Origin: an uncultured Clostridia bacterium
GTDB taxonomy: Bacteria > Bacillota > Clostridia > UBA1381
Assembly (NCBI GenBank): GCA_934463455.1
Contig: CAKSJU010000001.1
Span: 1-62,386, forward strand
Reading direction: 5' to 3'
Length of the DNA: 62,386 nt
Each line of letters starts with the position of its first letter. Within the stretch, counting starts at the first letter, position 1. The position numbers were made by a program, and so were the translations under genes. Of the stretch, positions 45,704-61,819 are shown in pieces. The notes under the pieces were generated by a model that was not told the DNA's origin, did no database searches, and worked only from the letters and a program-made list of their open reading frames with translations.

Positions 45704-48208
45704 ATGAATATCAGAATTGCCCTTGCAGGTAATCCGAACTGCGGTAAAACCACATTATTTAACGCATTGACCGGCTCAAATCAGTTTGTAGGAAACTGGC
45801 CGGGCGTTACTGTTGAAAAAAAGGAAGGAAAACTTAAAAAGCATGACGGCGTAATTATAACCGACCTTCCGGGTATTTATTCACTGTCTCCGTATACTTT
45901 GGAGGAAGTTGTTGCAAGAAATTACCTTATCGGTGAAAGACCTGATGCGGTGCTTAACATTATCGACGGTACAAACCTTGAGAGAAACTTATATCTTACA
46001 ACTCAGCTTACAGAGCTTGGCATACCGGTTGTAATTGCAATCAACATGATTGACGTTGTAAGGAAAAACGGCGATAAGATTAATATTGCGGAGCTGTCGA
46101 GAGAACTCGGATGCAAAATTGTTGAAATATCAGCATTAAAAGGCGACGGAGTTATGCAGGCGGCTGAGGAAGCGATAAAAGCGGCACAAAACGGAAAAAC
46201 CGTTCCGATGCACACTTTCAGCGGAGCCGTGGAGCATGCGATAGCACATATCGAAGAAGCTGTTCTTCACAATATGCCGGAGGACGAACAAAGATGGTAT
46301 GCTATAAAAATCTTTGAACGCGATGAAAAGGTTATAGAAAAGCTGGATATTAAACCGGAGGTCATGAAGCATATCGAAGCCGATATTAAAGCGGCTGAGG
46401 AGGAGCTTGATGATGACGCCGAAAGTATTATCACAAATGAAAGATACATATACATTGCGGAAATAATCAAAAGCTGCTACAAAAAGAAAAATGCGGGACA
46501 GCTTTCGAATTCGGATAAAATTGACCGAATTGTTACAAACAGATGGCTCGGACTTCCGATTTTTGCGGTTGTTATGTTCTTGGTTTACTATATCTCAATG
46601 GTTACAATCGGCTCAATGGCAACCGATTGGGCAAATGACGGTCTGTTCGGTGACGGATGGCATTTGTTCGGAATAGGATCTGCCGAGTACGGAGAAGTTT
46701 CCGAGGAATTCGGCGGAGCGGCTGAGGTTGTGAACGGATATATCGAATATGCCGCAGGCAAAGGTGTTGACACCGAGGCTGTCACAGAAGCACTTGATAC
46801 CGAATCGGACAGCTTTGATGCAGCCGCAGCAAAGTCTGCTTTGACGGAATTTGCCGATGAAGCAAAGACTTTGGGCGATGCAACTTACACAGTTGTTGAT
46901 GAAGAGACAATGGCAGATGAAGAGGTTACATCAACATACGATGACTTAACCGAAGCAATTGCAACATATGAAAAATATGATTGTACAGAGCCGGACCCTG
47001 CCGAATACGGAGTTTGGGTACCCGGTGTACCGGTACTTGTCGGAGATGCTTTGGAAAAGGCAAATTGTGCCGAATGGCTTTCGGGCTTGGTTTTGGACGG
47101 TATTGTTGCCGGTGTCGGAGCTGTTTTGGGATTTGTACCTCAAATGCTGGTATTGTTCCTGCTTCTGGCATTCCTGGAGGCTTGCGGATATATGTCAAGA
47201 ATTGCGTTCGTACTTGACCGTGTGTTCAGAAAGTTCGGACTTTCGGGAAAATCATTCATTCCTATGCTTATAGGTACAGGCTGCGGTGTTCCGGGTATTA
47301 TGGCTTCGAGAACGATAGAAAATGACCGTGACCGCAAAATGACTATTATGACGACAACATTTATCCCCTGCGGAGCAAAGGTTCCGTTTATCGCAATGAT
47401 TGCGGGTGCTATATTCGGAGGAAGTGCTTGGGTATCAACTTCTGCTTACTTCATAGGAATGGCAGCAATTGTAATTTCGGGAATTATGCTTAAAAAGACT
47501 GCTATGTTTGCAGGTGACCCGGCTCCGTTCGTTATGGAGCTGCCGGCATACCATATGCCTACTCTCTTGAATGTATTGCGCAGCATGTGGGAACGCGGTT
47601 GGTCATTCATTAAAAAAGCGGGTACAATCATTTTGCTTTCTACAATACTTGTATGGTTTACATCATATTTCGGATTTGTAGGCGGAAAGTTTACAATGCT
47701 TACTGATGAACAGCTTGATATGAGTATACTTGCTGTAGTCGGAAATGCTATAGCGTGGATATTCAAGCCTCTCGGCTGGGGTACATGGCAGGCAGCGGTT
47801 GCATCGATTACCGGTCTTGTTGCAAAGGAAAATATTGTCGGAACAATGGGTATACTCTACGGCGGCGGAGACGGCACCGTTTATGCAAATCTGGCACAGG
47901 CATTTACAGGCATTACGGGATATTCATTCTTGGTATTTAACCTGCTTTGCGCACCGTGCTTTGCGGCAATCGGAGCTATTAAACGTGAAATGAATAATGC
48001 AAAATGGACATGGTTTGCGATTGGTTATCAATGCTTGTTTGCTTATGCTGTAGCTTTGGTTATTAACCAAATCGGAAATGCGTTTACGGGAAACGTAAAT
48101 GTAATAGGCATTATTGCTGCGGTATTGGTAATTGCGGGCATAATATATATGCTGTTCAAGCCCTATAAGGAAGCAAATACACTTAAGGCGAACGTTAAAG
48201 TAAAGTAA
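45704..48208 (+). CDS. feoB: Ferrous iron transporter FeoB (with a long acidic extracytoplasmic insert)
   Basis: N-terminal G domain IALAGNPNCGKTTLFN..DLPG..NMID, followed by a polytopic membrane domain. An acidic insertion of about 120 aa follows the first TM segment. Confidence 0.95.
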   Translation: MNIRIALAGNPNCGKTTLFNALTGSNQFVGNWPGVTVEKKEGKLKKHDGVIITDLPGIYSLSPYTLEEVVARNYLIGERPDAVLNIIDGTNLERNLYLTTQLTELGIPVVIAINMIDVVRKNGDKINIAELSRELGCKIVEISALKGDGVMQAAEEAIKAAQNGKTVPMHTFSGAVEHAIAHIEEAVLHNMPEDEQRWYAIKIFERDEKVIEKLDIKPEVMKHIEADIKAAEEELDDDAESIITNERYIYIAEIIKSCYKKKNAGQLSNSDKIDRIVTNRWLGLPIFAVVMFLVYYISMVTIGSMATDWANDGLFGDGWHLFGIGSAEYGEVSEEFGGAAEVVNGYIEYAAGKGVDTEAVTEALDTESDSFDAAAAKSALTEFADEAKTLGDATYTVVDEETMADEEVTSTYDDLTEAIATYEKYDCTEPDPAEYGVWVPGVPVLVGDALEKANCAEWLSGLVLDGIVAGVGAVLGFVPQMLVLFLLLAFLEACGYMSRIAFVLDRVFRKFGLSGKSFIPMLIGTGCGVPGIMASRTIENDRDRKMTIMTTTFIPCGAKVPFIAMIAGAIFGGSAWVSTSAYFIGMAAIVISGIMLKKTAMFAGDPAPFVMELPAYHMPTLLNVLRSMWERGWSFIKKAGTIILLSTILVWFTSYFGFVGGKFTMLTDEQLDMSILAVVGNAIAWIFKPLGWGTWQAAVASITGLVAKENIVGTMGILYGGGDGTVYANLAQAFTGITGYSFLVFNLLCAPCFAAIGAIKREMNNAKWTWFAIGYQCLFAYAVALVINQIGNAFTGNVNVIGIIAAVLVIAGIIYMLFKPYKEANTLKANVKVK

Positions 48209-48399
48209 AATAAAATATGATCTTAGTGCTCTAAGGTTGTGGGTTTCGTTTCGGAATTTCGGTGGGAGTTTTAATATCCTGCTGAAATTCTGAGGAGCCG
48301 GAGCTATCCCTCGGAACAGGCTGCAATCTGCCAAAGACTTTGCTTCTTGCGAGCAAAGCGGGGGTGCTGCTCCGATTTAAAATTAAAGGAGGATTTTGT

Positions 48400-48588
48400 A
48401 TGAGTTGGTTATTAGATAATATAGGAACAATTGTAGTATTGGCTGTATTGATTGCCATCGTCGCGCTTATTATCCGGCATATCAGAAAGGATAAAGCTGC
48501 GGGAAAATCCTCCTGCGGCTGCGGCTGCGCCAATTGTGCGCTTCACGGAAAATGTCACGGCACGAAGAAAGAGCAGATAACGAAATGA
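48400..48588 (+). CDS. FeoB-associated Cys-rich membrane peptide
   Basis: 62 aa from ATG 48400 (RBS AAAGGAGG), with one TM segment followed by ..SSCGCGCANCALHGKCHG... Confidence 0.7.
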   Translation: MSWLLDNIGTIVVLAVLIAIVALIIRHIRKDKAAGKSSCGCGCANCALHGKCHGTKKEQITK

Positions 48589-48671
48589 TTATTGACATTT
48601 TGGCAGCTGCAGCTGTAAGTGCGGCGGTAATTGCATTGATTTCATGGGTGAAAAAATTATGCGGAAGATAA
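48585..48671 (+). CDS. Candidate 28-aa hydrophobic mini-protein, translationally coupled
   Basis: An ATGA overlap with the preceding stop. The product MIIDILAAAAVSAAVIALISWVKKLCGR is a single predicted TM helix. It is not in the ORF track (under 60 aa). Confidence 0.35.
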   Translation: MIIDILAAAAVSAAVIALISWVKKLCGR

Positions 48672-48853
48672 GATGGGATGTGAAAAAGGCCGAAGCTTTT
48701 TTAATTTGTAGGAAATTGCGTAAAACGCAATGACGGAAAATCAAAAATGCTACCTTATTCCTATGCCCGCAGGCGGAGCTTTTATCAAAAGCTTTTTTAC
48801 TATCCCATCAGGCGCATATAAATAACTGTAGATTTAAAGAAAGGATGTTAGTT

Positions 48854-49087
48854 ATGAAAATTTTGGATTTGGTAAAAAATGAAAAAGTATTGTGCTTTGT
48901 GGGCGGAGTTGTTGCAGCAACCTACGGAGTAAAGGCGTTAAAGAGCGAAAAAGCAAGAAAAGCTTGTGTTTCGGGATTGGCAAAATGTATTAAATTGCAG
49001 AATGATGCCCAGGAAACTTTTAAAAATATGAAAGAAGAAGCGCAGGACATTTGCTACGATGCGAATAAAGAAGCTAATAACGAATAA
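48854..49087 (+). CDS. Small conserved-looking protein preceding the P-type ATPase (DUF6110-like by recollection)
   Basis: 77 aa, MKILDLVKNEKVLCFVGGVVAATYGVKALKSEKARKA.., with one amphipathic/TM segment. It sits 17 nt upstream of the ATPase. Confidence 0.45.
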   Translation: MKILDLVKNEKVLCFVGGVVAATYGVKALKSEKARKACVSGLAKCIKLQNDAQETFKNMKEEAQDICYDANKEANNE

Positions 49088-49104
49088 CAAAGAGGGCACC
49101 GAAA

Positions 49105-51201
49105 ATGAAATTCAGAATAGTTTACGATTCTCCGGGCAGATTACGCTTGAGATGCGGTGCGGGCACTTTTAAAAAAGAACAGGAAGCAAGCCTGGTAAAA
49201 GCTGTGACAGGCATAGACGGAGTCTGTTCGGCGGAGGTATCGAGCATAAACGGTGGAATTTTGATATATTATAAGCCGGATATAAGAAAATTTATTCTTG
49301 ATACAGTCGGGCAAATTAATGCCGCGTCACTGCCAAGCGGAGAGTTATCACAAATTACGGTAATAGACGAGGAATTTAAGTGTGATTTTAAAAAAATAGT
49401 TGGAAAAGCATTGCTTATGAAGCTTTTTGTGCCATCTTTTATAAAGCTTCCGCTGACAATATTGAGAGCTGTGCCGTTTGTAAAAGAAGGACTTAAAAGC
49501 TTGTCGGAGGGAAAGCTGAATGTCAGTGTTTTGGATGCTGTTTCAATTTCGGCTTCCGTAATAAGCGGCTCGCCGTCTACGGCATCTTCTGTGATGACCC
49601 TTTTAAACATTTCTTCTTTGCTTGAAGGATATACAAAGAAAAAGGCTAAAACAGCACTTTCGGACAGCCTTAAGATTAATATAGACAAGGTTTGGAAAGT
49701 GACCGAAAAAGGTGAAGAAAGCGTTCCTCTTTCGCAGATTAAAATCGGTGATGTTGTAAGAGTCAGAAGCGGAAGCATGATTCCGACAGACGGTGTCGTA
49801 AGGAGCGGCTCTGCGGGAGTAAACGAAGCATCTATGACGGGTGAATCGGAACTCAGATTTAAATCGGAGGGAATAAGCGTTTACGCCGGAACCGTCATAG
49901 AGGAGGGATGTCTTGACATAGAAGCGGTCAAGCTTCCGGATGACAGCAGAATACATAACATTATTGAATTGATTGATAATTCCGAGGATTTAAAATCAAC
50001 AGTTCAGACAAAGGCGGAAAAGTTTGCCGACAGCCTGGTACCGTTCAGCTTTTTTTCAAGCGTGGCGGCATATCTGCTTACAGGTAATATAACAAAGGCT
50101 TTGTCGGTGCTCATGGTTGATTATTCATGTGCAATAAAATTATCAACTCCGATTTGTGTTATTTCGGCAATGAAAGAAGCAACAAACTATGATATTATGA
50201 TAAAAGGCGGCAGATATTTGGAAAATTACGCTTTTGCGGATACCATATTGTTTGATAAAACCGGAACACTTACCGTTTCATGCCCTAATTTGGCAAAAAT
50301 TGAGGCATTGGAAGGATATAATGAAGATACTATATTGCGGATTGCAGCATGTCTTGAAGAGCATTTTCCGCACAGTGTTGCAAAAGCTATTGTACATGCA
50401 GCCGCTGCCCGCGGCATTGAGCATACGGAAGAGCATGCCGAAGTGGAATATATTGTTGCCCACGGAATTGCATCATTTTTAAAAGGTGAAAGAGTTTTGA
50501 TAGGAAGTACGCATTTTATATTCGATGATGAGCATATTGCGATTGACGAAAAACAAGCCGAACTGATAAAAAAACTCGGTGAAAAATATTCTATGGTTTA
50601 TTTGGCAATAGGCGGAAAATTATGCGGAATTTTGTGCATAGAAGACCCGATAAGAGAGGACGCCGAAAAAGTAATTGCCAAGCTAAAAGCAGAGGGTATG
50701 CGCAATATTGTAATGATAACCGGAGACGGTGAAAGTACAGCGGCAAATGTATGCAGTGAATTGGGAATAGAAAAGTATTATGCGACGGTACTTCCCGAGG
50801 ACAAGCTTAATATAGTTAATTCTTATAAAGAGAACAATCATAAGGTTGTAATGGTAGGCGACGGTATAAACGATTCCCCGGCGCTTGCGGCTGCGGATGT
50901 TTCGATTGCAATGAAGGATGCTTCGGATATTGCGCGTGAAGTGGCGGATATTACGCTGCTGTCCTCCGACCTTGAAAAATTGATTGTTTTGAGAGATTTG
51001 AGTGAAAAGCTGTTTAAACGTATTCACTCTAACTATCGGTTTATTACATTATTTAACAGCGGGCTGCTGCTTATGGGATTGTGCGGAGTTATTTCTCCTG
51101 TATCAAGTGCGCTTTTGCACAATTTATCGACCATGGGCATATGTGCCGGAAGTATGAGACCTTTTATTTCGCGGGAGGTGGAAGATGCTGCTTTCGACTA
51201 A
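49105..51201 (+). CDS. P1B-type (heavy-metal) ATPase with SCA transmembrane motif and Cys-less HMA-like N-domain
   Basis: DKTGTLT, TGD, GDGINDSPAL. The TM metal-site position reads VDYSCAIKLSTP, where CopA/ZntA have CPC. The N-terminal ferredoxin-like domain has no CxxC. Confidence 0.85.
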   Translation: MKFRIVYDSPGRLRLRCGAGTFKKEQEASLVKAVTGIDGVCSAEVSSINGGILIYYKPDIRKFILDTVGQINAASLPSGELSQITVIDEEFKCDFKKIVGKALLMKLFVPSFIKLPLTILRAVPFVKEGLKSLSEGKLNVSVLDAVSISASVISGSPSTASSVMTLLNISSLLEGYTKKKAKTALSDSLKINIDKVWKVTEKGEESVPLSQIKIGDVVRVRSGSMIPTDGVVRSGSAGVNEASMTGESELRFKSEGISVYAGTVIEEGCLDIEAVKLPDDSRIHNIIELIDNSEDLKSTVQTKAEKFADSLVPFSFFSSVAAYLLTGNITKALSVLMVDYSCAIKLSTPICVISAMKEATNYDIMIKGGRYLENYAFADTILFDKTGTLTVSCPNLAKIEALEGYNEDTILRIAACLEEHFPHSVAKAIVHAAAARGIEHTEEHAEVEYIVAHGIASFLKGERVLIGSTHFIFDDEHIAIDEKQAELIKKLGEKYSMVYLAIGGKLCGILCIEDPIREDAEKVIAKLKAEGMRNIVMITGDGESTAANVCSELGIEKYYATVLPEDKLNIVNSYKENNHKVVMVGDGINDSPALAAADVSIAMKDASDIAREVADITLLSSDLEKLIVLRDLSEKLFKRIHSNYRFITLFNSGLLLMGLCGVISPVSSALLHNLSTMGICAGSMRPFISREVEDAAFD

Positions 51202-51583
51202 AAAGAAATATATGTTTACAATATATGAGCTTGCCTCAAACGGCAGCACTGTAAGAAGTATTGATATATCAAAATTGCTCGGAGTAAAAAAGGCAAGTGT
51301 TTCGCTTATGCTTCCGAATTTAATAAAAGAAAATCTTATTGAACGTACAGAAAACGGAAATATAGCTTTGACAAAAGAAGGAGCGGTTTTTGCAGGTGAA
51401 TTGTATGCGAAATATCTGACTGTTTACAATTTTTTTAAAGAAGATTTAAAAAGCGACGGTGAAAACGCGCGCAGGGACGCAATTTGCTGCCTGTGCTCGA
51501 TTTCTGATGATAATGCCGAAAGAATGACTGAATATATGCTTGAGTATCGGCATTGTACCTCCGGAGCAGGGCGTACAGATTGA
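51185..51583 (+). CDS. DtxR/MntR-family metal-dependent transcriptional repressor (HTH + dimerisation domain, no SH3)
   Basis: 132 aa, containing ..YMFTIYELASNGSTVRSIDISKLLGVKKASVSLMLPNLIKENLIE.. It overlaps the ATPase stop by 17 nt. Confidence 0.7.
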   Translation: MLLSTKKKYMFTIYELASNGSTVRSIDISKLLGVKKASVSLMLPNLIKENLIERTENGNIALTKEGAVFAGELYAKYLTVYNFFKEDLKSDGENARRDAICCLCSISDDNAERMTEYMLEYRHCTSGAGRTD

Positions 51584-51634
51584 AAAATCTGTATGCCTGC
51601 CTTTAAAGGTATTACAAAGAAAGGATTTGATAAA

Positions 51635-51925
51635 ATGAGTGTAGTTATTGTAGGCGGGCATGACCGCATGCAATGCAAATATAAGGAAATATGTAAAAAA
51701 TACGGATGTAAATGCAAGGTTTTTACGCAGTGTCCGGCAGATTTCAGAAATCAGATAGGCTCTCCCGATATGGTTGTGGTATTTACAGGGACCGTAGCGC
51801 ATAAAATGGTATCTATAGCGTCAAAACAGGCGGAAAAAACCGGCGCATATATAAGACATTGCAATTCCTCCAGCGGAAATGCGTTAAACGAAGCACTGAA
51901 AGAATATTTTACGGTAGAAACTTAA
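51635..51925 (+). CDS. DUF2325-like small protein
   Basis: 96 aa, MSVVIVGGHDRM...DMVVVFTGTVAHKMV... RBS AAAGAAAGGA. Confidence 0.5.
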   Translation: MSVVIVGGHDRMQCKYKEICKKYGCKCKVFTQCPADFRNQIGSPDMVVVFTGTVAHKMVSIASKQAEKTGAYIRHCNSSSGNALNEALKEYFTVET

Positions 51926-51937
51926 ATTTTTTTGGAG

Positions 51938-51961
51938 TATAGTTAGTCTAAACTAACTATA
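51938..51961. promoter_or_regulatory. Perfect DtxR-like palindrome TATAGTTAGT-CTAA-ACTAACTATA
   Basis: 10-bp perfect arms. Its core TAGTTAGTCTAAACTAACT matches the feo-promoter box TAGTTATGCTAAACTAACT at 17 of 19 positions. Confidence 0.55.
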
Positions 51962-51978
51962 CCGGCAAGGAGAACAAT

Positions 51979-52542
51979 ATGGTTGAAAATATAATTGAAA
52001 ATATGATTGCAAAGCATTGTGCACCTGCTCTGGCAGGGATAAAACCGAGCAATTTAATGGCGATTGAAAAAAATAAAACAACTGATATAAAAGAGAATAT
52101 AATAAGGCTCAATAGGGAACTGAATAATAAGGATATTTATATAGATATTTTATGCGAATGCAGCAAGCGGATTTTACTGCTGGTATATCGCAGAAAAAAA
52201 CTCGAGGAATATCTTCGCGGTAACGAAATAAAGCTGTTGCTCGACAAATACGGATATAAAAAATGCAATACTCTCGAGAGCATGATAAAAAGATTGAAAA
52301 CAAGATTAAAAAATTCCGAGTTTCCGCATGAAATAGGAGCATTTTTAGGTTATCCCATAGATGATATATACGGATTTATAAATCATAAAAACAGCGGATG
52401 TCTTTTTGCGGGGGAATGGCGCGTTTACAAAAATGTCAGTGAAGCGAAAGAGCTTTTTAAAAGATATAAAGCCTGCCGTGCGGCACTTGTGAAAAGAATG
52501 ATGCAGGGAAAAACGCTTGCACAGATTTTTTGCGCGGCATAA
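51979..52542 (+). CDS. DUF3793-like protein
   Basis: 187 aa, containing ..KHCAPALAGIKPSNL.. and ..FPHEIGAFLGYP..DI.GF.., as I recall for DUF3793. Confidence 0.5.
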   Translation: MVENIIENMIAKHCAPALAGIKPSNLMAIEKNKTTDIKENIIRLNRELNNKDIYIDILCECSKRILLLVYRRKKLEEYLRGNEIKLLLDKYGYKKCNTLESMIKRLKTRLKNSEFPHEIGAFLGYPIDDIYGFINHKNSGCLFAGEWRVYKNVSEAKELFKRYKACRAALVKRMMQGKTLAQIFCAA

Positions 52543-52593
52543 AAACTACATAAACAATATTGTCAAAAGGCAATTTGTTAAAAAAAATACTTT

Positions 52594-52633
52594 AGAGTTT
52601 TAATTGTGAAACTTTAGTTTTACAATTAGCTGA
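52594..52633. repeat. AT-rich palindromic element, copy F
   Basis: AGAGTTTTAATTGTGAAAC-TTTA-GTTTTACAATTAGCTGA, upstream of flavodoxin. Confidence 0.9.
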
Positions 52634-52661
52634 TCATTATTTTAAAAGGAGGTTTTACAAT

Positions 52662-53090
52662 ATGAGTAAAACAGCAATTATTTATTGGAGCGGTACAGGC
52701 AACACAGAAGCAATGGCAGCGGCGGTACTGGAGGGGGCAAAAGAAGTTAACTCAGATGTGGGATTTTTCACTGTTTCGGAAATTACTTCGGATAAAGCGG
52801 CTGAATATGACACTCTTATATTAGGCTGCCCCGCAATGGGCTCTGAGGTTTTGGAAGAAAGCGAATTTGAGCCGTTCTTTACAGAGCTTGAATCTAAATT
52901 ATCCGGCAAAAAAGTTGCGCTTTTCGGCTCATACGGCTGGGGAGACGGCGAATGGATGAGAGATTGGGAAGAAAGAGTTATAGCGGCAGGCGCAACGCTT
53001 GCAGGCGGCGAGGGAGTTATCGCAAATGAAGCTCCCGACGATGAAGCGTGCGAAAAATGCAAGGAATTGGGCAAAACAGCAGCGCAATAA
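52662..53090 (+). CDS. Short-chain flavodoxin
   Basis: 142 aa, MSKTAIIYWSGTGNTEAMA.. (FMN phosphate loop) and ..LFGSYGWGDGEWM... Confidence 0.9.
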   Translation: MSKTAIIYWSGTGNTEAMAAAVLEGAKEVNSDVGFFTVSEITSDKAAEYDTLILGCPAMGSEVLEESEFEPFFTELESKLSGKKVALFGSYGWGDGEWMRDWEERVIAAGATLAGGEGVIANEAPDDEACEKCKELGKTAAQ

Positions 53091-53103
53091 TAAAAAAATG
53101 ACG

Positions 53104-53150
53104 GGGATTGCAAGGTAAAAATATTTTGCAATCCCTTGTCTTTTTTTTGT
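53104..53150 (+). terminator. Intrinsic terminator after flavodoxin
   Basis: GGGGATTGCAA..TTGCAATCCC stem, then TTGTCTTTTTTTT. Confidence 0.8.
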
Positions 53151-53252
53151 GTCTATGATAAAATACAATTTGTGAACGGATAGTGGATTGAAACGAACGG
53201 CTTATCGGTTTATAATAAAACTGCGGAATAAATAAAAGAAGGGAAGATAAAA

Positions 53253-54689
53253 ATGAATTTAGAAAAAAGCGGAGAGCTTCTTTACAATTTGAGAAAAGCA
53301 AAGAAAATGACGCAGAAGCAGGTTGCCGACAGGCTCGGAGTTTTGCCGAAAACAATTTCGAAATGGGAAACGGGGCACGGTTTCCCGGATATTTCCTGCG
53401 TTCCGGATTTGGCAAAAATTTTAGGAGTAAGTACCGATACAATTTTATCCGGCAGCCTTACCGCAAACATTGAGGAGGTCGGAAATATGAAAAAAACAAA
53501 ATTTTATGTGTGTCCGCAGTGCAGAAGCTTTATGCAGGGGGTTGGAGAATGTAAAATTTCCTGCTGCGGGAAAGAATTAAAACCGTTAAAGGCGGCATTG
53601 GGTGAGGGAGACGTAAAAATTTCGGAAATTGAAAACGATTATTACATTACCTTTTCTCATGAAATGAACAAGGAGCATTTTATAGCGTTTGCAGCTTATG
53701 TGACCTTTGACAAAGTGCTTACAGTAAGGCTTTACCCCGAGCAGGATTCTTCGGTAAGATTTCCGAAGCTTTACGGAGGAAAGTTATATTATTATTGTAA
53801 TAAGCACGGACTTTTTGAATATGTACCGCCGGAAAAGGACAGCAATTCTTCAAATGGCGGACTTACGTCATTAATGTCTGCATTTGCAAGAGCATATCAC
53901 GGTAAAAACAGTCGGAATCCTATATTTTATGACGGTTTTGCGGAAAAGCTTTTAACCGATGAAGAGTATGAAAATATTTTAAATTTTATTTCGGCAGAAA
54001 AAGAAAATGCAGATGATTATATAAACAAAAACCTTGTCCCCACCCCGGCAGCACGTGCGGCTTTTTTTGAAGAAAGTATTGAAAACGCAATTCAAATCGG
54101 CACGCGGCAGTATGTAATTCTCGGCAGCGGTTTGGATACCTTTGCACTGAAAAAGGACAGTTCGGGTATTAAGATATTTGAACTTGACAAAAAAACAACT
54201 GTTGAAGATAAAAAGAAAAGAATTGAGCGTGCCGGATTAAAAAGCGGAAGCAGTATTTTGGCGGCAGATTTATCCTGCGATAATATTGAAAAAATATTAT
54301 GTGAGAACGGATTTGACAAAAACAAAAAAACAATATTTTCCTGCATGGGACTTCTGTATTATCTCACAAAAGAGGAAATTGACAAGCTTCTGGAACAAAT
54401 TTCGGGAATTTGTGCCGAAGGCAGTTCGCTGGTGTTTGATTTCGGAGACAGTCATTTGTTTTCCTCCGAAGTCCCGCGGGTGAAGGATATGGTGAAAATG
54501 GCACAGAAAAGCGGCGAGCCTATGAAATCATGTTTTGGTTACGGCGAACTCGAAAAATTGCTTGAAAAGCATGGATTTTTAATCTATGAATTTTTAAATC
54601 GTGACGATATTCAAAGGAGATTTTTTGAAGGTAACGAAGAAACGACCGCATTCGAACATATAAATTATGTACTTGCGGTGAAAAAATAA
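53253..54689 (+). CDS. Three-domain fusion: XRE-family HTH + desulfoferrodoxin/SOR-like domain + LCM/TIGR00027-type SAM-dependent O-methyltransferase
   Basis: aa 1-70: ..MTQKQVADRLGVLPKTISKWETGHGFPD... aa 80-190: YVCPQCRSF..CCGKEL.. then ..FSHEMNKEHFIAF..YYYCNKHGLFEY (compare SOR HPM..EHYI.. and ..YCNLHGLW). aa 200-478: ..RQYVILGSGLDTFA..ELD...DL..CMGLLYYL... Confidence 0.65.
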   Translation: MNLEKSGELLYNLRKAKKMTQKQVADRLGVLPKTISKWETGHGFPDISCVPDLAKILGVSTDTILSGSLTANIEEVGNMKKTKFYVCPQCRSFMQGVGECKISCCGKELKPLKAALGEGDVKISEIENDYYITFSHEMNKEHFIAFAAYVTFDKVLTVRLYPEQDSSVRFPKLYGGKLYYYCNKHGLFEYVPPEKDSNSSNGGLTSLMSAFARAYHGKNSRNPIFYDGFAEKLLTDEEYENILNFISAEKENADDYINKNLVPTPAARAAFFEESIENAIQIGTRQYVILGSGLDTFALKKDSSGIKIFELDKKTTVEDKKKRIERAGLKSGSSILAADLSCDNIEKILCENGFDKNKKTIFSCMGLLYYLTKEEIDKLLEQISGICAEGSSLVFDFGDSHLFSSEVPRVKDMVKMAQKSGEPMKSCFGYGELEKLLEKHGFLIYEFLNRDDIQRRFFEGNEETTAFEHINYVLAVKK

Positions 54690-56017: not shown

Positions 56018-58558
56018 ATGAAAAAAATGAAAGAAAAAATTGTAGCGTTGTGCAGTATGATTGCGATACTGGCATCTGTGTTTGTTGCTCCCGCAGCGGC
56101 GGAAACAGCAGAGACTATCAGTATTTTGTGTAAGGATCAGGCGGCAAGTAATCCGCAGATATATCGCGGATGGGGTCATGGCGACGCTTTGGGCAATCAA
56201 ACTGACGACATAACCGGGACTATTTCCGCAAAATTTGATTTTACGGTGGAAAAAGCAGGTTGGTATGATGCGGAATTTATAATAGCGTCTAATTCAAGCT
56301 ATCGTTATTCTGCCGGTAATTTTTCGAAGGTTAATTATTGGTTTGACAGCGATAGCCCGAAATGGCTTTCGGATTCGTCTGTAAATGCTGCTTCGCCTAC
56401 GGTGGAAACCTTGAATTATGACCCGCTGAGCACTGCGGAAAACTTTGAACAGACAAAGCTTTTGGAGCCTTTATATTTTGAGGCGGGCAGCCATTCAATT
56501 AATTTTATTACTGACGGAGTAAACAGAAGTAACATTGTTATGGCAGGATTTTATTCAATAAAGCTTAATTATGTTGATTTTTCTGTTATTAATGTTATGT
56601 GCCGAGACCAAAAGGCAGCAAACAGTTCTTTGGAAGAATGGGGAATAGGCGGAAATTACGGAGCTGCGCTGGGTAAAAGAATAAATAATAATAACAATGC
56701 TCAGAAGATTAACGCATCTTTTAAATTTAACATAAAAAACGAGGGTTGGTATTCCGCGAACTTTATTATAGCATCCAATTCCGGCAATGAATATTCTGCC
56801 GGAAATTTTTCGAAGGTCAATTATTGGTTTGACAGTGATAGCCCGAAATGGCTTTCGGATTCAGCGGTAAATCCTTCGTCGCCGACGGTAACAACGGTGA
56901 ATATAGACCCGTTGAATACGTCTCGAAATTATGAACAGACAAAGCTTTTGGAGCCGGTTTATTTTGCGGCGGGAGAGCATACAATTAGTTTTGAAACCTT
57001 TGAGGATAGCAGAGACGGAGCGGCACATGCAGCATTTTATTCGATTAAGCTCGAAAACATTGATGTAAGCTCATTAAATGATATTACGCTTCACGGCGGA
57101 GATTATCCGAATGTAGCTATTGAGGATAAGGATGGCAATGTAAGCTATGTGCAGGCGGAAACAGATAGATATAATTTAAAAGACAAAGGAAAAATAGCCT
57201 TGATATACCGTAACTCATCTAAAGACGGAGCGGAAAACGGATACAAATTCACAATTCCGTTTAAGGTTTATACGGATGGCTACTATGACTGTAATATAAA
57301 GATGTGTTCCTACGCTCGTTTGCCGATAAGTAAATACGGATGGAGTTCACCGGCATATGTTGGAATTGACGCTGAAGCGCCGACATGGATAAAATCATTT
57401 GCGACCGATGAAGATATTGAAGTGACTGCTGAAATTGTTAAAACATTCGGTGATGATACTTATAATTTTGAACCCGGACAGTGGCAGGAATGTGCTCTTA
57501 AACCTATGCACTTGGCAGCGGGAAATCATACTATGACAATTCACATTCCCGAACAGGCACCGAATCAGGAGAGCAACCTTTATATTTTTGCACTTGACAG
57601 CATTCACATCCGCCCGGCAGAAGCTCGGACGAGCTTTACAGCTGAGGGTGAAGAGCTCTGGATTAAAGATAAGAGTGACGTTGTTGAGGACAGTGTATAT
57701 TCAAACGGCTCGGCTGTGAAATATACACAAACAGGTACTGTGAGCGTTCCGTTCTATCTTTCGAGTGACGGAAACTACAATTTCGGGGCAATCGCAAAAG
57801 GAACAGCTTCGTATAGAGTAGACGGAACAGCTGTTTCGGGAATTTCGTCTATCGAGGATTTGCAGGCGACAGTCGGCAGCGGCTGGAACAGATACAAATC
57901 ATCGGTTATGCAGCTTAATGCGGGAGTACATACTCTTGAAATTGACGTAAACGACTCGTATATGCTTGATAAAATAGATATAATAAAAGCAATTAATGTG
58001 ACAGATATTTCCTTGCAGGGAGATGACGTTATATCTGAGGGTCAAAGCAAACTGATGAAAGTCATTAACCAAGACGGAGAAGAAGTGTCTTTGTATGATG
58101 TTGATTCTCTGTGCTTCGAAAGCAACGATGAAAATATTGCCGCGGTAGACGGTTACGGCAATGTCACAGCTGTAAATGCGGGCACGGCCGTAATTACTGT
58201 CGGAGCGGCAGCAGGCGGAAAAAATATGACTGCTTCAAAGAAGATTTATGTACCGGGTAAAACCGGCTTATATCTTAAGGATGCTGCAATAAACGGAAAT
58301 GATGTAACGGTTACGCTTGCGGCAGCTTCGGATGCTGCGGCATCAAAAGTGATAGTTGCTTCGTATGGCGCAGTAAACGGAGTTCCGACATCATTTAAAG
58401 CAGTTAATTTTGCGGATTTCGGTGCAATTTCCGCAAATACAAGCGATACAAAAACAATATCATTAACTTCAATAGAAGCGTCGGATCATGTATGTGTATT
58501 TGTATTTGACGGTCTTGATACAATGGTACCATTGTATGCAAAAACAATCGTAAGATAA
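56018..58558 (+). CDS. Secreted 846-aa protein with tandem CBM-like modules and a Big_2 (bacterial Ig-like) domain
   Basis: It has a signal peptide, two repeats of about 162 aa (56117-56602 and 56603-57089), further beta-sandwich-like modules, and a Big_2-like segment ..ENIAAVDGYGNVTAVNAGTAVITV... Confidence 0.6.
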   Translation: MKKMKEKIVALCSMIAILASVFVAPAAAETAETISILCKDQAASNPQIYRGWGHGDALGNQTDDITGTISAKFDFTVEKAGWYDAEFIIASNSSYRYSAGNFSKVNYWFDSDSPKWLSDSSVNAASPTVETLNYDPLSTAENFEQTKLLEPLYFEAGSHSINFITDGVNRSNIVMAGFYSIKLNYVDFSVINVMCRDQKAANSSLEEWGIGGNYGAALGKRINNNNNAQKINASFKFNIKNEGWYSANFIIASNSGNEYSAGNFSKVNYWFDSDSPKWLSDSAVNPSSPTVTTVNIDPLNTSRNYEQTKLLEPVYFAAGEHTISFETFEDSRDGAAHAAFYSIKLENIDVSSLNDITLHGGDYPNVAIEDKDGNVSYVQAETDRYNLKDKGKIALIYRNSSKDGAENGYKFTIPFKVYTDGYYDCNIKMCSYARLPISKYGWSSPAYVGIDAEAPTWIKSFATDEDIEVTAEIVKTFGDDTYNFEPGQWQECALKPMHLAAGNHTMTIHIPEQAPNQESNLYIFALDSIHIRPAEARTSFTAEGEELWIKDKSDVVEDSVYSNGSAVKYTQTGTVSVPFYLSSDGNYNFGAIAKGTASYRVDGTAVSGISSIEDLQATVGSGWNRYKSSVMQLNAGVHTLEIDVNDSYMLDKIDIIKAINVTDISLQGDDVISEGQSKLMKVINQDGEEVSLYDVDSLCFESNDENIAAVDGYGNVTAVNAGTAVITVGAAAGGKNMTASKKIYVPGKTGLYLKDAAINGNDVTVTLAAASDAAASKVIVASYGAVNGVPTSFKAVNFADFGAISANTSDTKTISLTSIEASDHVCVFVFDGLDTMVPLYAKTIVR
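56117..57089 (+). repeat. Intragenic tandem duplication (2 x ~486 nt)
   Basis: For example, 56308-56400 and 56794-56886 are nearly identical at nucleotide level (..ttctgccgg.aatttttcgaaggt.aattattggtttgacag.gatagcccgaaatggctttcggattc..). Confidence 0.85.
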
Positions 58559-58633: not shown

Positions 58634-61600
58634 ATGAAAAAAACAATACGTTTTTTGTTTATTATGACGGCAGTTCTTTTTATTGCAGTGCTGCCGGCAA
58701 GTGCGGAAAGTGTAAGAACAGAGGGGGAAAACTACTCCGATATAAGCTTTGACGGAGGGTATATAAGAAACAATTCGAATTTCAGCGAAAAAAAAGCTTT
58801 ATATGCGGATGTTGATGCGTTAATCGGCGAATGCCGCATAACATATAATATTGACGCTCCGAAAGACGGAAATTATAATTTAACAGGTGTGACCAGTGTA
58901 TTTGACGCGTATTATACCACAGATTTTGACATACGGATAAACGACGGTGATTTGTACATGCCGCAGGTAAAGGTTCTTGAAAAATATTCATGGACAATTG
59001 CCGGAAGAAACGACTATATGGCGCGCCAGGATTTCGGAAGCGTAAGGCTGAACAAGGGACAAAACAAATTGGAAATAATTCTCAGAAGAGATGATCCTCA
59101 TGTTACCGATGCGAGATTTATAACAATTATAGATTACTTGGAATTTACATCGGTTACGGAGGAATTTAAAATAAAAGAAATTAAAGCACTGACAGATGCA
59201 GCCAATGTTTTTTCGAAAGGCAGCAATGCGGAATTTAAAATAAAATTTACCGATGCGGCACAGACGAAAAAAACGGTCATGTTCAATCTGTATGATATGA
59301 CCGGCAGAAAAGTCAGGAACGGGTATGTTTCGGCGGCAAAAGGTAAAACCGAATGTATGCTTAATTTGGGTGCTATGCTTTGCGGTTGGTATAAGCTGGA
59401 GATTTCGGGAATTGAAACGGATAATATTTTAAATCCGATATTTTTCAGTATTGTGGACAGTGCAAAAAACAGCTCAAAAAACAGTCCTTTCGGTATTGAT
59501 AAATTTAAAAGCAATTTATATGACAGTAAAAAAATGTATAAGGCCGCGGGATATATGGGAATTGATATGGTAAGAATCGGAAATGACCCTTATCTTGCGA
59601 TGAATAATGAAAACTATCTTGAAACTCATGAAGATTTATATAGAGACGCGGAATATGCCGAAGGAATGAAAACGCTTGTAGGATATGAGCATTTGGGTGC
59701 AAATTGGTCAAGAAAGAGTCCGGATAATTTGCTTGAAGCTTATGAAATGAATAAAAATCTTGCGTCTCATTATAAGGGCAGAGGGTATGCGTATGAAATA
59801 TGGAATGAAGAAGAAGCGCAGTTTTACGAGCAGCCGGCAGACACGTATGCCTCATTTTTTAAGGCAGCGGCGATAGGCATATCGGACGGCGACCAAGCTG
59901 CTTTCAAAATGCCGGGCGGTTACGGCGGAACGCCGGAAAATTTCTTTGTACGACTTCTTTTGAGAAACGGAGTTACCGATTATGCGGACGCATACGCCTA
60001 CCATAATCATACTTCCGTTTTAAGAGGTAAATCATACAGTAAATTCGTTGAATCGGTAGCAAAAAAACATATGAATGCAGCGTTGGCATATGATGCTTTT
60101 CAGCCTGTGTGGGTAACCGAAGCGGGGATAAATATGGCTGTGGACGGTAATGAAATTCCTGCGGACGATACTCTTTCTTCACAGGCAAGATATTATGTGG
60201 TAGGTACTGTTCAGCAGCTGGCATACGGAGCGAAAAAATCGTTTTGGTTCAGAATGGGTCATTTTATGGAGGACGGAAACGAATGGGGAACATATAACAA
60301 AGAAAGTCAGCCGTACCCGGCAGTAAATTCAATTGCCATGCTCACGAAAATTCTTAAAAAAGGAGAATTTAAGGGAACACTAAACACTGTCGGAGATGTA
60401 GAGGGATATTTGTTTGATACCGGTGACAGCGACGCAGCGGTTGTCTGGTCAGACTCAGAGGGAAGGTGTCAGCTCTATACCGATTTGCCCGTTAAGGTTA
60501 CAAGTCTTGATCGGGAAACAAAGGAATATAAACCGACGGTTATGAACGGCGGCGGTATGGTAAATATTCCGGTGTCATATTTTCCGATATTTATAGAATT
60601 TGTCGGCAGGTCGGACGAAAGAAACTATTTTGGGATAAAGGGTTTTGAAAAAAATACTGCCGCAAAAACCTATACTGCCGCGGACAGGATTGTTCTTCAG
60701 CAGCTTTGGGAAGGACAAGACGAATATCAATCAAAGGTACGCGGGTATAAGCTTTCGTACGGACAAAAGCAGAAGATTAAGTTCAATGTGTACAATTTTA
60801 ATGATACGCAGCAAAGAGGAACATTGAATATTGTTTCGGAATCCGCTGTAAGAGAGACCGAAATTATTAATTTGAGCGGCCGAAGCTTTGAATTTAATAT
60901 TGCACCGATGTCTTCGCAGAGCTTTGAAGCGGAAGTAGTATGCAATTCAAATGCGGAAGCGGGAGAAACAGGATTTTTGATGCTATCGGCAAAGCTTTCG
61001 GACGGAAGTGAAATATCAAAATCCATAGCGGCATTTTATGCGGATGACAGCGAAAGGGTGTTATCCGGTTATGATTATTTCGAAAATTATTCGGATATAA
61101 CAAAATGGAATGAAAAAAATTGCGGCGACGGAATTACAATAAAGAAAAGCAGCCCGTCGGACGGTGTGGTACGTTTTGATGTAACGAGCAAAAATAATAA
61201 TGTGTGGTATTGGCCGAGCATAGGTTTAACAAATTATGTCGGTGACGAAGCGGGACTCACTTTTAAAATCCGTTCGACAAAAGGAAACGAGCAGAATGTA
61301 AATGTGTATGCTTACTGTACAGACGGAGCATATTGGCTCGGGATAACAAATGCGGTTTCGTATGACGGAGAATGGAAGCAGGTTATTATTCCCTGGCACA
61401 GATTTCTTGTATTTTCGGGTACAAGCACGGAATTTGACCCGAAAAAAATAAGAAGCATAGGAATTGGAAGCTATGCTCCCGCGGGAGAAAGCTCCTATGA
61501 ATTAAAGGAATTGGGTTTTTACCGGTCGGACAGTCCGGCCGACATGAGCGATAAGGGACAGCCGATAAGGATAAGCGGTATAACGCCGGATAAAAAATAT

Positions 61601-61819
61601 AACAGAAATACGAGATTTCATATTGAGGCAAACGTTAATCAGACAAACGAAATCTCTGTAAGATTGGGAGACCGGTATATAAACGACTATTCTTTAAATG
61701 ACGGTAAGCTTGTATTTGATTTCACCGTGAATGAGCGGGGAAAATATGATTTACAAATTACAAACACCGATAAATGGAATTACAAAAATACATCGTTGAT
61801 TAATTTTTATGTAAAATAG
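58634..61819 (+). CDS. Secreted 1061-aa clan GH-A-like glycoside hydrolase with flanking CBM-like modules
   Basis: It has a signal peptide. The (beta/alpha)8-type motifs are ..YAYEIWNEEE.. (acid/base NE) and ..PVWVTEAGI.. (nucleophile TE), flanked by N- and C-terminal beta-sandwich-like regions. Confidence 0.6.
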   Translation: MKKTIRFLFIMTAVLFIAVLPASAESVRTEGENYSDISFDGGYIRNNSNFSEKKALYADVDALIGECRITYNIDAPKDGNYNLTGVTSVFDAYYTTDFDIRINDGDLYMPQVKVLEKYSWTIAGRNDYMARQDFGSVRLNKGQNKLEIILRRDDPHVTDARFITIIDYLEFTSVTEEFKIKEIKALTDAANVFSKGSNAEFKIKFTDAAQTKKTVMFNLYDMTGRKVRNGYVSAAKGKTECMLNLGAMLCGWYKLEISGIETDNILNPIFFSIVDSAKNSSKNSPFGIDKFKSNLYDSKKMYKAAGYMGIDMVRIGNDPYLAMNNENYLETHEDLYRDAEYAEGMKTLVGYEHLGANWSRKSPDNLLEAYEMNKNLASHYKGRGYAYEIWNEEEAQFYEQPADTYASFFKAAAIGISDGDQAAFKMPGGYGGTPENFFVRLLLRNGVTDYADAYAYHNHTSVLRGKSYSKFVESVAKKHMNAALAYDAFQPVWVTEAGINMAVDGNEIPADDTLSSQARYYVVGTVQQLAYGAKKSFWFRMGHFMEDGNEWGTYNKESQPYPAVNSIAMLTKILKKGEFKGTLNTVGDVEGYLFDTGDSDAAVVWSDSEGRCQLYTDLPVKVTSLDRETKEYKPTVMNGGGMVNIPVSYFPIFIEFVGRSDERNYFGIKGFEKNTAAKTYTAADRIVLQQLWEGQDEYQSKVRGYKLSYGQKQKIKFNVYNFNDTQQRGTLNIVSESAVRETEIINLSGRSFEFNIAPMSSQSFEAEVVCNSNAEAGETGFLMLSAKLSDGSEISKSIAAFYADDSERVLSGYDYFENYSDITKWNEKNCGDGITIKKSSPSDGVVRFDVTSKNNNVWYWPSIGLTNYVGDEAGLTFKIRSTKGNEQNVNVYAYCTDGAYWLGITNAVSYDGEWKQVIIPWHRFLVFSGTSTEFDPKKIRSIGIGSYAPAGESSYELKELGFYRSDSPADMSDKGQPIRISGITPDKKYNRNTRFHIEANVNQTNEISVRLGDRYINDYSLNDGKLVFDFTVNERGKYDLQITNTDKWNYKNTSLINFYVK

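Follow-up and report, generated by a model that had tools for sequence, protein, structure and literature searches.

A tri-domain HTH-desulforedoxin-superoxide reductase protein with a C-terminal OPCMT-like methyltransferase in an uncultured Clostridia bacterium: a possible autoregulated redox-sensing transcription factor

The gene at positions 53253..54689 of the window (the whole analysed stretch of 62,386 nucleotides; all coordinates given here are on its + strand) encodes a protein of 478 aa which, according to domain scans, joins an XRE-type helix-turn-helix (HTH, residues 7-67), a desulforedoxin-superoxide reductase module (Dx-SOR, residues approx. 81-192) and a TIGR00027/LCM methyltransferase (residues 204-478). 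We suggest, with confidence slightly short of even, that it is an autoregulated one-component transcription factor of the HTH-Dx-SOR type carrying an iron/redox-sensing module, to which an OPCMT-like methyltransferase has been added C-terminally. The preliminary description of this DNA had proposed a DNA-binding protein whose iron/redox sensor is tied to a methyltransferase, and this is still the best reading that we can infer.

The reading frame agrees exactly with the one described earlier, and is supported by the ORF list and by full-length homologues. Approximately 100 full-length homologue clusters from Clostridia metagenome assemblies share the architecture at 50-65% identity, all of them annotated only as “SAM-dependent methyltransferase”, and the same ORF is present on three independent contigs (relative P0001, 96% identity); therefore, the fusion is confirmed as one real gene, and the joining error that had been raised as a possible artefact was not borne out. 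Some odd relatives do look artefactual or rearranged: P0114, a protein fused to radical SAM and represented by one 3-kb contig of 1.8x coverage, which we treat as unverified; P0104, where a helicase fragment replaces the HTH and Dx domains and which looks like a rearranged remnant; and the truncated copy L206. They lend something to the explanation that the fusion arose from an assembly or frameshift error, or is a non-functional remnant of a decaying gene, but the identical architecture of the roughly 100 clusters with functional residues kept in all three domains, the three contigs and the confident full-length model (pLDDT 88) stand against it, and this explanation is already effectively refuted, with a negligible chance of being correct. 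The only stretch of that model with pLDDT <50 is a flexible linker (residues 194-202, 53832..53858), whose length and sequence are variable in the alignment.

The N-terminal domain (53271..53453), with the recognition helix PKTISKWETG, scores above the curated Pfam cut-offs of HTH_19 (residues 7-67, E 6e-13, 48.9 bits, cut-off 30.2), HTH_3 (residues 10-63, E 1.7e-11, 44.4 bits, cut-off 23) and HTH_31, which places it in the XRE/Cro-C1 type, as first described. In the homologue alignment T34, S36, K37, W38, E39 and G41 are invariant.

Single-sequence searches of the middle region were weak. PF01880 gave E 0.086 and 13.8 bits (cut-off 22.2), while TIGR00320 matched over model positions 4-123 of 125 with E 8.8e-5 and 22.7 bits (cut-off 146.9), and the window protein reaches the threshold of neither curated 2Fe-SOR model. 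Despite these scores, homology to 2Fe-SOR is clear, since a profile made of 29 family members matches the solved desulfoferrodoxins (Dfx) 2ji2, 2ji1, 1vzg and 1dfx with E values from 2e-11 to 6e-10, in a full-length alignment in which every metal ligand is paired. With the full-length model, Foldseek returned mainly matches to the methyltransferase domain, and the SOR fold was therefore tested on an AlphaFold model of the Dx-SOR module by itself. Its pLDDT was 91.9, and the best nine matches were all superoxide reductases (TM 0.72-0.79), with those of Desulfoarculus baarsii (2ji1), D. desulfuricans (1dfx) and T. pallidum (1y07), as well as 1vzg, among them; the predicted module has the same two-domain fold, a Dx domain followed by an immunoglobulin-like beta-sandwich. 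The preliminary description had called this region SOR-like on account of a cysteine knuckle and several motifs, all of which are present in the sequence, and the relationship holds at the level of profile and fold; the region is, however, not merely SOR-like but a complete desulforedoxin and SOR two-domain unit. Unlike the 2Fe-SORs, it has a DNA-binding domain on one side and a methyltransferase on the other.

The desulforedoxin-like domain (residues approx. 81-115, 53493..53597) carries the motif CPQC...CC, with C87, C90, C104 and C105 aligned to Dfx Cys9, Cys12, Cys28 and Cys29; the spacing C87-x2-C90-x13-C104-C105 corresponds to the centre I motif CxxC-x15-CC with a loop two residues shorter than in Dfx. 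In the neelaredoxin-type SOR domain (residues approx. 116-192, 53598..53828), the profile match to solved Dfx, Foldseek and the ligand census point to H136 and H142 (motif SHEMNKEH) and C182 and H185 (motif YCNKHG) as the candidate ligands that are left. In Dfx, His49 is the first equatorial Fe ligand, and the window protein lacks its equivalent because three residues have been deleted in frame between G119 and D120 (53607..53612); the alignments display this deletion, which is common to P0001. The absence of this His had been remarked on before. The centre II ligand set of 2Fe-SORs, (E)(K)H ... H-x5-H ... C-x2-H (PMC11980386), is consequently incomplete here, with H-x5-H and C-x2-H in their aligned places. 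Because one His ligand is lost, the iron site of centre II in the window copy is, judging by the alignment, altered or weaker than in most family members. This is a peculiarity of the window lineage and not a general feature, as the first SOR His is present in 78 of the 83 tri-domain homologues. By our own reading of the alignments, other lineages have also lost the His49 equivalent, on at least three to five occasions, a hint that the protein may be able to do without centre II.

The family as a whole retains all nine metal ligands, i.e., the Fe(Cys)4 and Fe(His)4Cys sets. In a census of 75 species proteins, the Dx cysteines are kept in 74-75, the H69, H75 and C116 equivalents in all 75, the H119 equivalent in 71 and the H49 equivalent in 66. 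Such conservation of the Fe ligands is equally expected of a working SOR enzyme, and it is one of the points in favour of a second explanation, in which the protein would be an active superoxide reductase and carboxyl methyltransferase, with an HTH that merely autoregulates the gene and an iron centre that has no role in sensing. The 2Fe-SOR fold (profile and Foldseek), the conserved catalytic landmarks of the methyltransferase and the fact that the only candidate operator detected is at the gene's own promoter agree with this explanation as well. It is known from established SOR enzymology, however, that Lys48 is important for superoxide capture and for protonation of the intermediate; its equivalent is Lys in only 5 of the 75 proteins, which argues against selection for fast SOR catalysis. 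Additionally, the Glu47 equivalent is kept only in part across the family, the His49 equivalent is lost repeatedly (the window copy included), the protein remains far under the cut-offs of curated SOR models, and no gene for rubredoxin or another electron donor is conserved near the tri-domain or standalone loci. We therefore consider this explanation unlikely, and in the reading that we prefer, the Dx-SOR module would bind iron and act mainly as a sensor of redox state, superoxide or O2, and less as an efficient detoxifying enzyme.

The C-terminal domain (residues 204-478, 53862..54686) is a SAM-dependent methyltransferase of the TIGR00027/LCM fold, as had been claimed, with scores above the curated cut-offs of TIGR00027 (residues 204-459, 162.1 bits, cut-off 93.55) and of Pfam LCM PF04072 (residues 207-383, E 2e-41, 142.3 bits, cut-off 22.3). 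Its best PDB matches by structure and sequence are the recently characterised OPCMT-like small-molecule carboxyl methyltransferases, represented by ML2640c, Rv0731c and MnMT4 (PMC10193983), with which it shares the LCM fold with an N-terminal helical sub-domain; the best Foldseek matches of the full-length model are 2uyq and 6id6. In ML2640c, Thr20 and Tyr/Phe194 position the substrate carboxylate, and a double mutation of Thr20 and Tyr194 abolished activity (PMC10193983). According to the alignments to ML2640 and Rv0731c, T205 and Y370 are the corresponding residues, and they are invariant in 83 homologues. The SAM contacts of ML2640c are Arg28, Arg90, Ala113, Ser114, Gly115, Asp135, Asp164, Leu165, Glu189 and Gly190 (PMC10193983), and nine of the ten are matched in the window protein (R213, R268, G291, S292, G293, D312, D339, L340 and G366), while Glu189 is replaced by M365 here and by Leu in most homologues. 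At 23-24%, the identity to 2uyq and 6id6 falls short of the >30% identity to ML2640c that the OPCMT survey used (PMC10193983), and unlike those actinobacterial enzymes the domain belongs to a Clostridia host and is fused to a regulator. We expect that the methyltransferase would be catalytically competent and would methyl-esterify a small carboxylic acid; the protein would then be bifunctional, an enzyme and a regulator at once, as BirA and PutA are. The fusion ties the class to a newly recognised group of microbial enzymes, the small-molecule carboxyl methyltransferases, of which some accept cholic acid; for gut Clostridia this is a lead, and no more than a lead.

The author of the preliminary description was not aware of a characterised example of the three-way architecture. 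The methyltransferase fusion is indeed unreported, but the HTH-Dx-SOR part was already catalogued in 2011 as a class in SORGOdb by Lucchetti-Miganeh et al. (PMC3116461), defined by bioinformatics only, with no function or operator reported. The window protein has the same order of HTH, desulforedoxin and SOR in one polypeptide, and over residues 1-190 its identity with standalone members of the class reaches 68%; those members end after the SOR domain at approx. 194 aa, whereas the window protein adds a methyltransferase of 280 aa. In our literature search, no experimental study of any HTH-Dx-SOR member was found. The HTH-Dx-SOR pair is a known, uncharacterised class, and what is new is the C-terminal methyltransferase only. 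Two possible characterised relatives turned out to be unrelated: OseR of C. difficile is a member of the Spx/YusI family, and TrtA of T. denticola, an XRE protein of 104 aa, has no SOR module.

The family comprises 562 representatives at 50% identity (E up to 1e-10), 542 relatives were found among species genomes, and the methyltransferase fusion is a restricted sub-group of the family. The standalone form is present in cultured bacteria such as Terrisporobacter muris DSM 29186, Propionispora sp. 2/2-37 and Gracilibacillus ureilyticus. Since most members are standalone and others have TipAS or DUF2087, effector domains of the regulator type, in the place where the methyltransferase is found here, HTH-Dx-SOR behaves as an autonomous unit. 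It is already known that 2Fe-SORs are homodimers and that an XRE HTH requires a dimerisation domain. A third explanation would be, then, that Dx-SOR has no redox function and serves as a dimerisation scaffold stabilised by metal (Fe or Zn), while sensing falls to the C-terminal domain: here the methyltransferase, with SAM, SAH or a carboxylate as the signal that it binds, and in other members TipAS or DUF2087. The different effector-type domains on one chassis, the gain or loss of the methyltransferase among close relatives, and the persistence of the gene despite repeated loss of the His49 equivalent would all fit. Most members have no C-terminal domain, however, which leaves Dx-SOR as their only candidate sensor, and three or four His and the Cys of centre II are kept over phyla-level divergence, which a pure scaffold would not need; we find the scaffold improbable, to about the same degree as the purely enzymatic explanation.

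Upstream of the gene, an intrinsic terminator of the flavodoxin gene (53103..53146; inverted repeat I1, a 15-pair stem followed by a T run) precedes a sigma-70-type promoter (53188..53216) with TTGAAA, a 17-nt spacer and TATAAT, which matches 11 of 12 consensus positions, is the best in the region, and has a counterpart in the TTG-N17-TATAAT-like layout of orthologous loci. Because this terminator and the fusion gene's own promoter lie between them, the flavodoxin gene is separate and the fusion gene is its own transcription unit. Immediately before the promoter lies the conserved element GTGAACGGATAGTGGATTG (53172..53190) with the core ACGGATAGTGGATTG at 53176-53190, the last three bases of which are the first bases of the -35 hexamer. 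The element is seen in an alignment of the upstream regions of approx. 75 species; it is 15-20 bp long and strongly conserved, and in dozens of species, in the form ACGGAnnGTGGATTG, it directly adjoins the -35 box of the unit in which the HTH-Dx-SOR gene is transcribed. A pattern of 13 specified bases was matched at 31 of the 92 loci, with a single match in each of these, on the same strand and approx. 45-65 nt before the start codon, whereas by our estimate approx. 0.02 matches would be expected by chance (approx. 650 kb, both strands). The position weight matrix (PWM) of the element gave 0 matches in shuffled DNA, and the only exact match within the 62-kb window is at the gene's own promoter. 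From the motif counts, upstream alignments and PWM, we predict that ACGGAnnGTGGATTG is a probable auto-operator of HTH-Dx-SOR genes, i.e., that the XRE HTH would bind it and autoregulate the gene; it could alternatively be a site of another conserved factor or an element of promoter strength. In either case it gives a concrete DNA target which makes the regulation of the gene testable.

Two variants of the element track a change at HTH residue 32, which is Pro/Ala with one variant and Asp with the other and which corresponds, in a phmmer alignment, to the base-contacting Gln28 of 434 repressor; this co-variation is confounded by phylogeny. The dyad symmetry of the element, T-N2-AC-N5-GT-N2-A, is weak and atypical of an XRE dimer site. 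Of the known signals compared with it, a Rex box matches by eye only in its left half (TTGTGAA), a sigma-B promoter does not fit because the -10 is TATAAT-like, and no Rfam family reaches its gathering score. The lineage L075-L080 does not have the element immediately before the gene; there it lies 2.9 kb away, at the promoter of an operon in which HTH-Dx-SOR is the last gene.

A DNA-binding domain joined to a catalytic or metallo-cofactor domain has precedents. BirA, PutA and NadR are bifunctional enzyme/repressors, with PutA switching on the redox state of its cofactor, and PerR, SoxR and FNR are iron-based redox-sensing regulators; by analogy, the state of such a domain would control DNA binding here too, although their sensor and enzyme domains are not homologous to those of the window protein. 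We know of no demonstrated case of transcriptional sensing by a mononuclear Fe(His)4Cys SOR centre. In a possible mechanism, oxidation of centre II and a rearrangement of its loop and ligands beside the HTH-proximal Dx domain would alter DNA binding. The most specific form of our hypothesis, that the SOR fold was recruited as the sensor of a transcription factor, in which superoxide or O2 at Fe(His)4Cys would toggle the HTH on ACGGAnnGTGGATTG in a switch that gates or is gated by the methyltransferase, we consider doubtful, if somewhat less so than either the enzymatic or the scaffold explanation. Counted against the preferred reading as a whole are the weak dyad of the element, the replaced Glu189, the low identity to OPCMT enzymes, the one His ligand gone here, and the lack of conserved neighbours and of additional target sites in our searches.

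Superoxide and oxygen sensing in strict anaerobes is only partly understood, with PerR, Rex, sigma-B and recently OseR (C. difficile) as known players. HTH-Dx-SOR proteins, a widespread family that a database has included since 2011, have the appearance of ready-made one-component sensors of superoxide or redox state. If the SOR-sensor reading is true, they would represent an iron-based superoxide/redox sensor of a new type, with a wide distribution in Clostridia, Negativicutes and some spirochaetes, and the fusion would couple oxidative stress to methyl-esterification of metabolites in gut anaerobes; if the protein is merely an autoregulated SOR, the result is a modest improvement over the annotation “SAM-dependent methyltransferase”.

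Searches of neighbouring genes and of additional target sites gave no regulon candidates. In the window, the element had no further sites beyond two 2-mismatch matches inside ORFs, which is within chance expectation, and the PWM scan of approx. 650 kb of homologue loci returned own-promoter sites only. The exact 15-mer had 120 matches in the metagenome collection, nearly all of them chance matches on unrelated contigs, and only one adjoins a Dx-SOR gene, a degraded one. The preliminary description had placed the gene next to a metal island (Feo, P-type ATPase, DtxR and flavodoxin genes); this link is unsupported and a partnership with the flavodoxin or the island was rejected, since the adjacency is not conserved in more distant homologues and the terminator and own promoter intervene. 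Four distant tri-domain loci had no neighbour in common with the window or with one another. No methyltransferase gene was present within approx. 4 kb of any standalone HTH-Dx-SOR, so the fusion is not mirrored by an operon. Neighbour clustering of 57 standalone loci found nothing conserved apart from a rhodanese gene, which recurs in six of them and is located just downstream in four of these six.

The tri-domain protein is encoded by an ORF of 478 aa at 53253..54689 of the forward strand, as the preliminary description had it, and this is one gene, not two. In a protein search, about 100 clusters (90% identity) from Clostridia, Oscillospiraceae, Lachnospiraceae and Christensenellales MAGs cover 100% of it at 50–65% identity with the same Pfam content, every named full-length cluster being annotated merely as "SAM-dependent methyltransferase", and a protein 96% identical to it (P0001) is found on three independent contigs with identical gene order, which excludes two genes joined by a sequencing error. 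The full-length model (pLDDT 88.3) has a single disordered linker, residues 194–202. The three-domain interpretation was right: the N-terminal XRE-type HTH is matched by HTH_19 (residues 7–67, E 6e-13) and HTH_3 (residues 10–63) of Pfam, and the C-terminal methyltransferase by the LCM family of Pfam (residues 207–383, E 2e-41) and by TIGR00027 of NCBIfam (residues 204–459, 162 bits vs a cut-off of 93.55). The domain scan that had been proposed was clear for these two domains, but the middle region was weak with the single sequence (PF01880, E 0.086; TIGR00320, E 8.8e-5, spanning 4–123 of the 125-position desulfoferrodoxin model) and needed a family profile.

Such a profile, built from a module alignment of 29 homologues (A3) and searched against the sequences of solved structures, gave significant matches to desulfoferrodoxins (Dfx) only, each over full length (2ji2, 2ji1, 1vzg and 1dfx, E 2e-11 to 6e-10; the T. 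pallidum protein 1y07 also matched, E 4e-4), with Cys9, Cys12, Cys28, Cys29, the His49 position, His69, His75, Cys116 and His119 in register. An AlphaFold model of the module had a pLDDT of 91.9, and its best nine PDB matches in Foldseek were 2Fe-type superoxide reductase (SOR) chains (TM 0.72–0.79), followed by 1Fe-SORs. Profile matches and modeled fold together assign residues ~81–115 to a desulforedoxin (Dx) domain and residues ~116–192 to the SOR beta-sandwich. Measured against curated HMM cut-offs, the protein falls outside the SOR family, and the proposed SOR-like middle region is, judging from profile and model, a true but divergent 2Fe-SOR homologue.

C87, C90, C104, C105, H136, H142 and C182 are invariant in 83 tri-domain sequences, and H185 is kept in at least 90% of them. 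Most homologues have an extra His, in a D-E-x-H context, at the aligned position of Dfx His49, which is the first of the equatorial ligands. Alignments confirm that this first SOR ligand is absent from our protein, as from P0001 and P0083, through a short in-frame deletion; in P0108 and P0109 it is lost with the whole hairpin. Centre II of our copy has three His and Cys only, so that it may be an attenuated variant. In a census of 75 proteins from different GTDB species, standalone HTH-Dx-SOR forms included, the equivalents of His69, His75 and Cys116 were present in all 75, the Dx cysteines in 74–75, that of His119 in 71 and that of His49 in 66, while the Glu47 equivalent was acidic in 47 and the Lys48 equivalent was Lys in 5. 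In SOR, Lys48 aids superoxide capture and protonation of the peroxo intermediate; since its equivalent is mostly absent, the residue pattern suggests that the module is not tuned for catalysis. Dx-SOR might instead be a metal-stabilised dimerisation scaffold, with sensing done by the C-terminal domain, a rival reading that we regard as rather unlikely.

The closest PDB relatives of the methyltransferase domain, by sequence and fold, are ML2640c and Rv0731c, then LCMT-1, PPM1 and TYW4. A 2023 study describes ML2640c, Rv0731c and MnMT proteins as broad-range, OPCMT-like carboxyl methyltransferases of small molecules, in which Thr20 and Tyr/Phe194 are the landmarks and ten residues are listed as SAM contacts (PMC10193983). 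On alignment, T205 and Y370 correspond to Thr20 and Tyr194, both invariant in 83 homologues, and the SAM contacts Arg28, Arg90, Ala113-Ser114-Gly115, Asp135, Asp164-Leu165 and Gly190 correspond to R213, R268, G291-S292-G293, D312, D339-L340 and G366; the sole changed contact is Glu189, replaced by Met in this protein and by Leu in most homologues. As identity to ML2640c and Rv0731c is just 23–24%, we grade the domain as OPCMT-like and probably catalytic. An enzyme-first protein with simple autoregulation would make use of these same residues, and we give this explanation a small share of the probability. The closest standalone relatives of the domain (loci L090 and L091) are ~300 aa long and 48–52% identical; they are flanked by TetR-family and MerR-family regulator genes in a Lachnospira genome (L090, 1120–3574, and L091) or stand alone, a setting that fits weakly with small-molecule handling.

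The gene forms a transcription unit of its own, preceded by a terminator after the flavodoxin gene (53103–53136 plus a T run) and by the promoter TTGAAA-17-TATAAT (53188–53216), no other promoter match in the region being as good. Aligned upstream regions of orthologues share GTGAACGGATAGTGGATTG directly before, and extending into, the -35 hexamer (53172–53190, forward strand, about -51 to -36), and standalone HTH-Dx-SOR genes carry the same element at the same place. Such a position would suit repression as well as lambda-cI-like activation. In 31 of 92 loci the pattern ACGGANNGTGGATTG has a single occurrence, on the coding strand and 45–65 nt ahead of the start codon, and the 62-kb window has one as well (53176–53190), against our chance expectation of ~0.02 matches (13 specified bases, ~650 kb, both strands). 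Dyad symmetry is partial (T-N2-AC-N5-GT-N2-A), and no Rfam family explains the element.

Across L001–L092, from dozens of species, the element has two variants, ACGGAnnGTGGATTG (type A) and CTCTACGGAGCGTTTATTG (type B). Type A, (g/a)tg(a/t)ACGGA(T/G)(A/C)GTGGATTG, is paired with HTHs reading (P/A)KTVSKWETGxGFPD, all tri-domain proteins among them, and type B, aCTCTACGGAGCGTTTATTG, with HTHs reading SD(K/R)TISKWERGLGCPD. Residue 32 of the HTH tracks the variant (Pro/Ala in type A vs Asp in type B), a correlation confounded by phylogeny; by phmmer (query 19–73 vs chain 15–68) it corresponds to Gln28 of the 434 repressor, which contacts bases. Position matrices gave 0 matches on shuffled DNA and own-promoter sites only on real loci, with one exception: in L075–L078 and L080 the stretch directly upstream of the HTH-Dx-SOR gene has no site, which is found instead at an operon promoter 2.9 kb upstream; the operon has four genes (a 123-aa protein, DUF6530, a 677-aa AAA_5+VWA protein and HTH-Dx-SOR last). 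By this placement the element follows the transcription unit, as would be expected of an auto-operator. This operon (L075, 1060–4597) belongs to a Metalachnospira-like lineage, and its HTH-Dx-SOR proteins are without the His49 equivalent.

A link to the metal island was not borne out. The upstream metal/redox cluster (45704–53090) contains FeoB, a P-type ATPase (49105–51201) overlapping a DtxR-like regulator (51185–51583), DUF2325, DUF3793 and a short-chain flavodoxin, and a convergent AraC regulator lies downstream; this order is conserved in the same species only, and four distant orthologue loci shared no neighbours with it, theirs being entirely different. FeoA genes were seen just before FeoB in L001. 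Further downstream, 56018–58558 (846 aa) and 58634–61819 (1061 aa) encode two large, probably secreted proteins, the former with an internally duplicated ~170-aa module, the motif NFSKVNYWFDSDSPKWLSDS twice and a weak Big_2 match.

Starting from the established architecture, the conservation of ligands and catalytic residues, the gene's own promoter and the element conserved there, we propose that the HTH would bind the element, that the iron centres would be occupied and that oxidation of centre II would alter DNA affinity. In SOR, the Glu47-Lys48-His49 loop moves onto the iron when centre II is oxidised. The methyltransferase would work as an enzyme, with regulation tied to its activity or ligand state, by analogy with BirA, PutA and NadR. 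The earlier idea of a redox- or metal-responsive regulator with enzymatic output is plausible from sequence.

The HTH-Dx-SOR core is a class catalogued in SORGOdb but uncharacterised, defined by sequence alone and with no mention of a methyltransferase (PMC3116461); full-text literature searches found no experimental work on it. The suggestion that the three-way architecture has no characterised example stands for the methyltransferase fusion, but its core was already catalogued; the fusion and the conserved predicted operator are, as far as we found, undescribed. Two regulators of the oxygen response, OseR (an Spx/YusI protein) and TrtA (a 104-aa XRE protein), were rejected as characterised relatives, being unrelated.

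A scan in which each species was represented by one genome gave 542 relatives; among the best 80, 15 are tri-domain (L008–L022, all MAGs or uncultured) and most of the remainder match residues 1–190 only, being mostly proteins of ~190–212 aa that end directly after the SOR domain. Cultured carriers of the standalone form include Terrisporobacter muris, Propionispora sp. and Gracilibacillus ureilyticus. When a profile was run exhaustively against 1.84 billion representatives, it returned 562 matches at E up to 1e-10, the full-length ones mostly of ~194–200 aa, with the tri-domain family present as one representative (P0033). Other C-terminal additions are a TipAS antibiotic-recognition domain (P0209, P0180), DUF2087 (P0233) and extensions without an assigned domain (P0169, 275 aa; P0167, 356 aa). 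When the N-terminal modules are placed on a neighbour-joining tree, tri-domain proteins group together, with standalone proteins nested among them; this means repeated gain or loss of the methyltransferase, or else a lack of resolution in the tree. No methyltransferase gene was found near standalone loci.

An apparent HTH-Dx-SOR and radical-SAM fusion (P0114; L092, 237–1607) is carried by a 3-kb contig at a coverage of 1.8x and is possibly an assembly chimera; L005 has a convergent radical-SAM gene just downstream of a tri-domain gene. The only recurrent neighbour found among standalone loci is a small rhodanese-domain gene, present in six and directly downstream in four (e.g., L034, 4597–5007; see also L206, 866–1207). 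In L206 (732–1160), a degraded copy has the conserved promoter element followed by a truncated Dx-SOR without HTH, running into a rhodanese fragment, and an integrase-like gene adjoins it.
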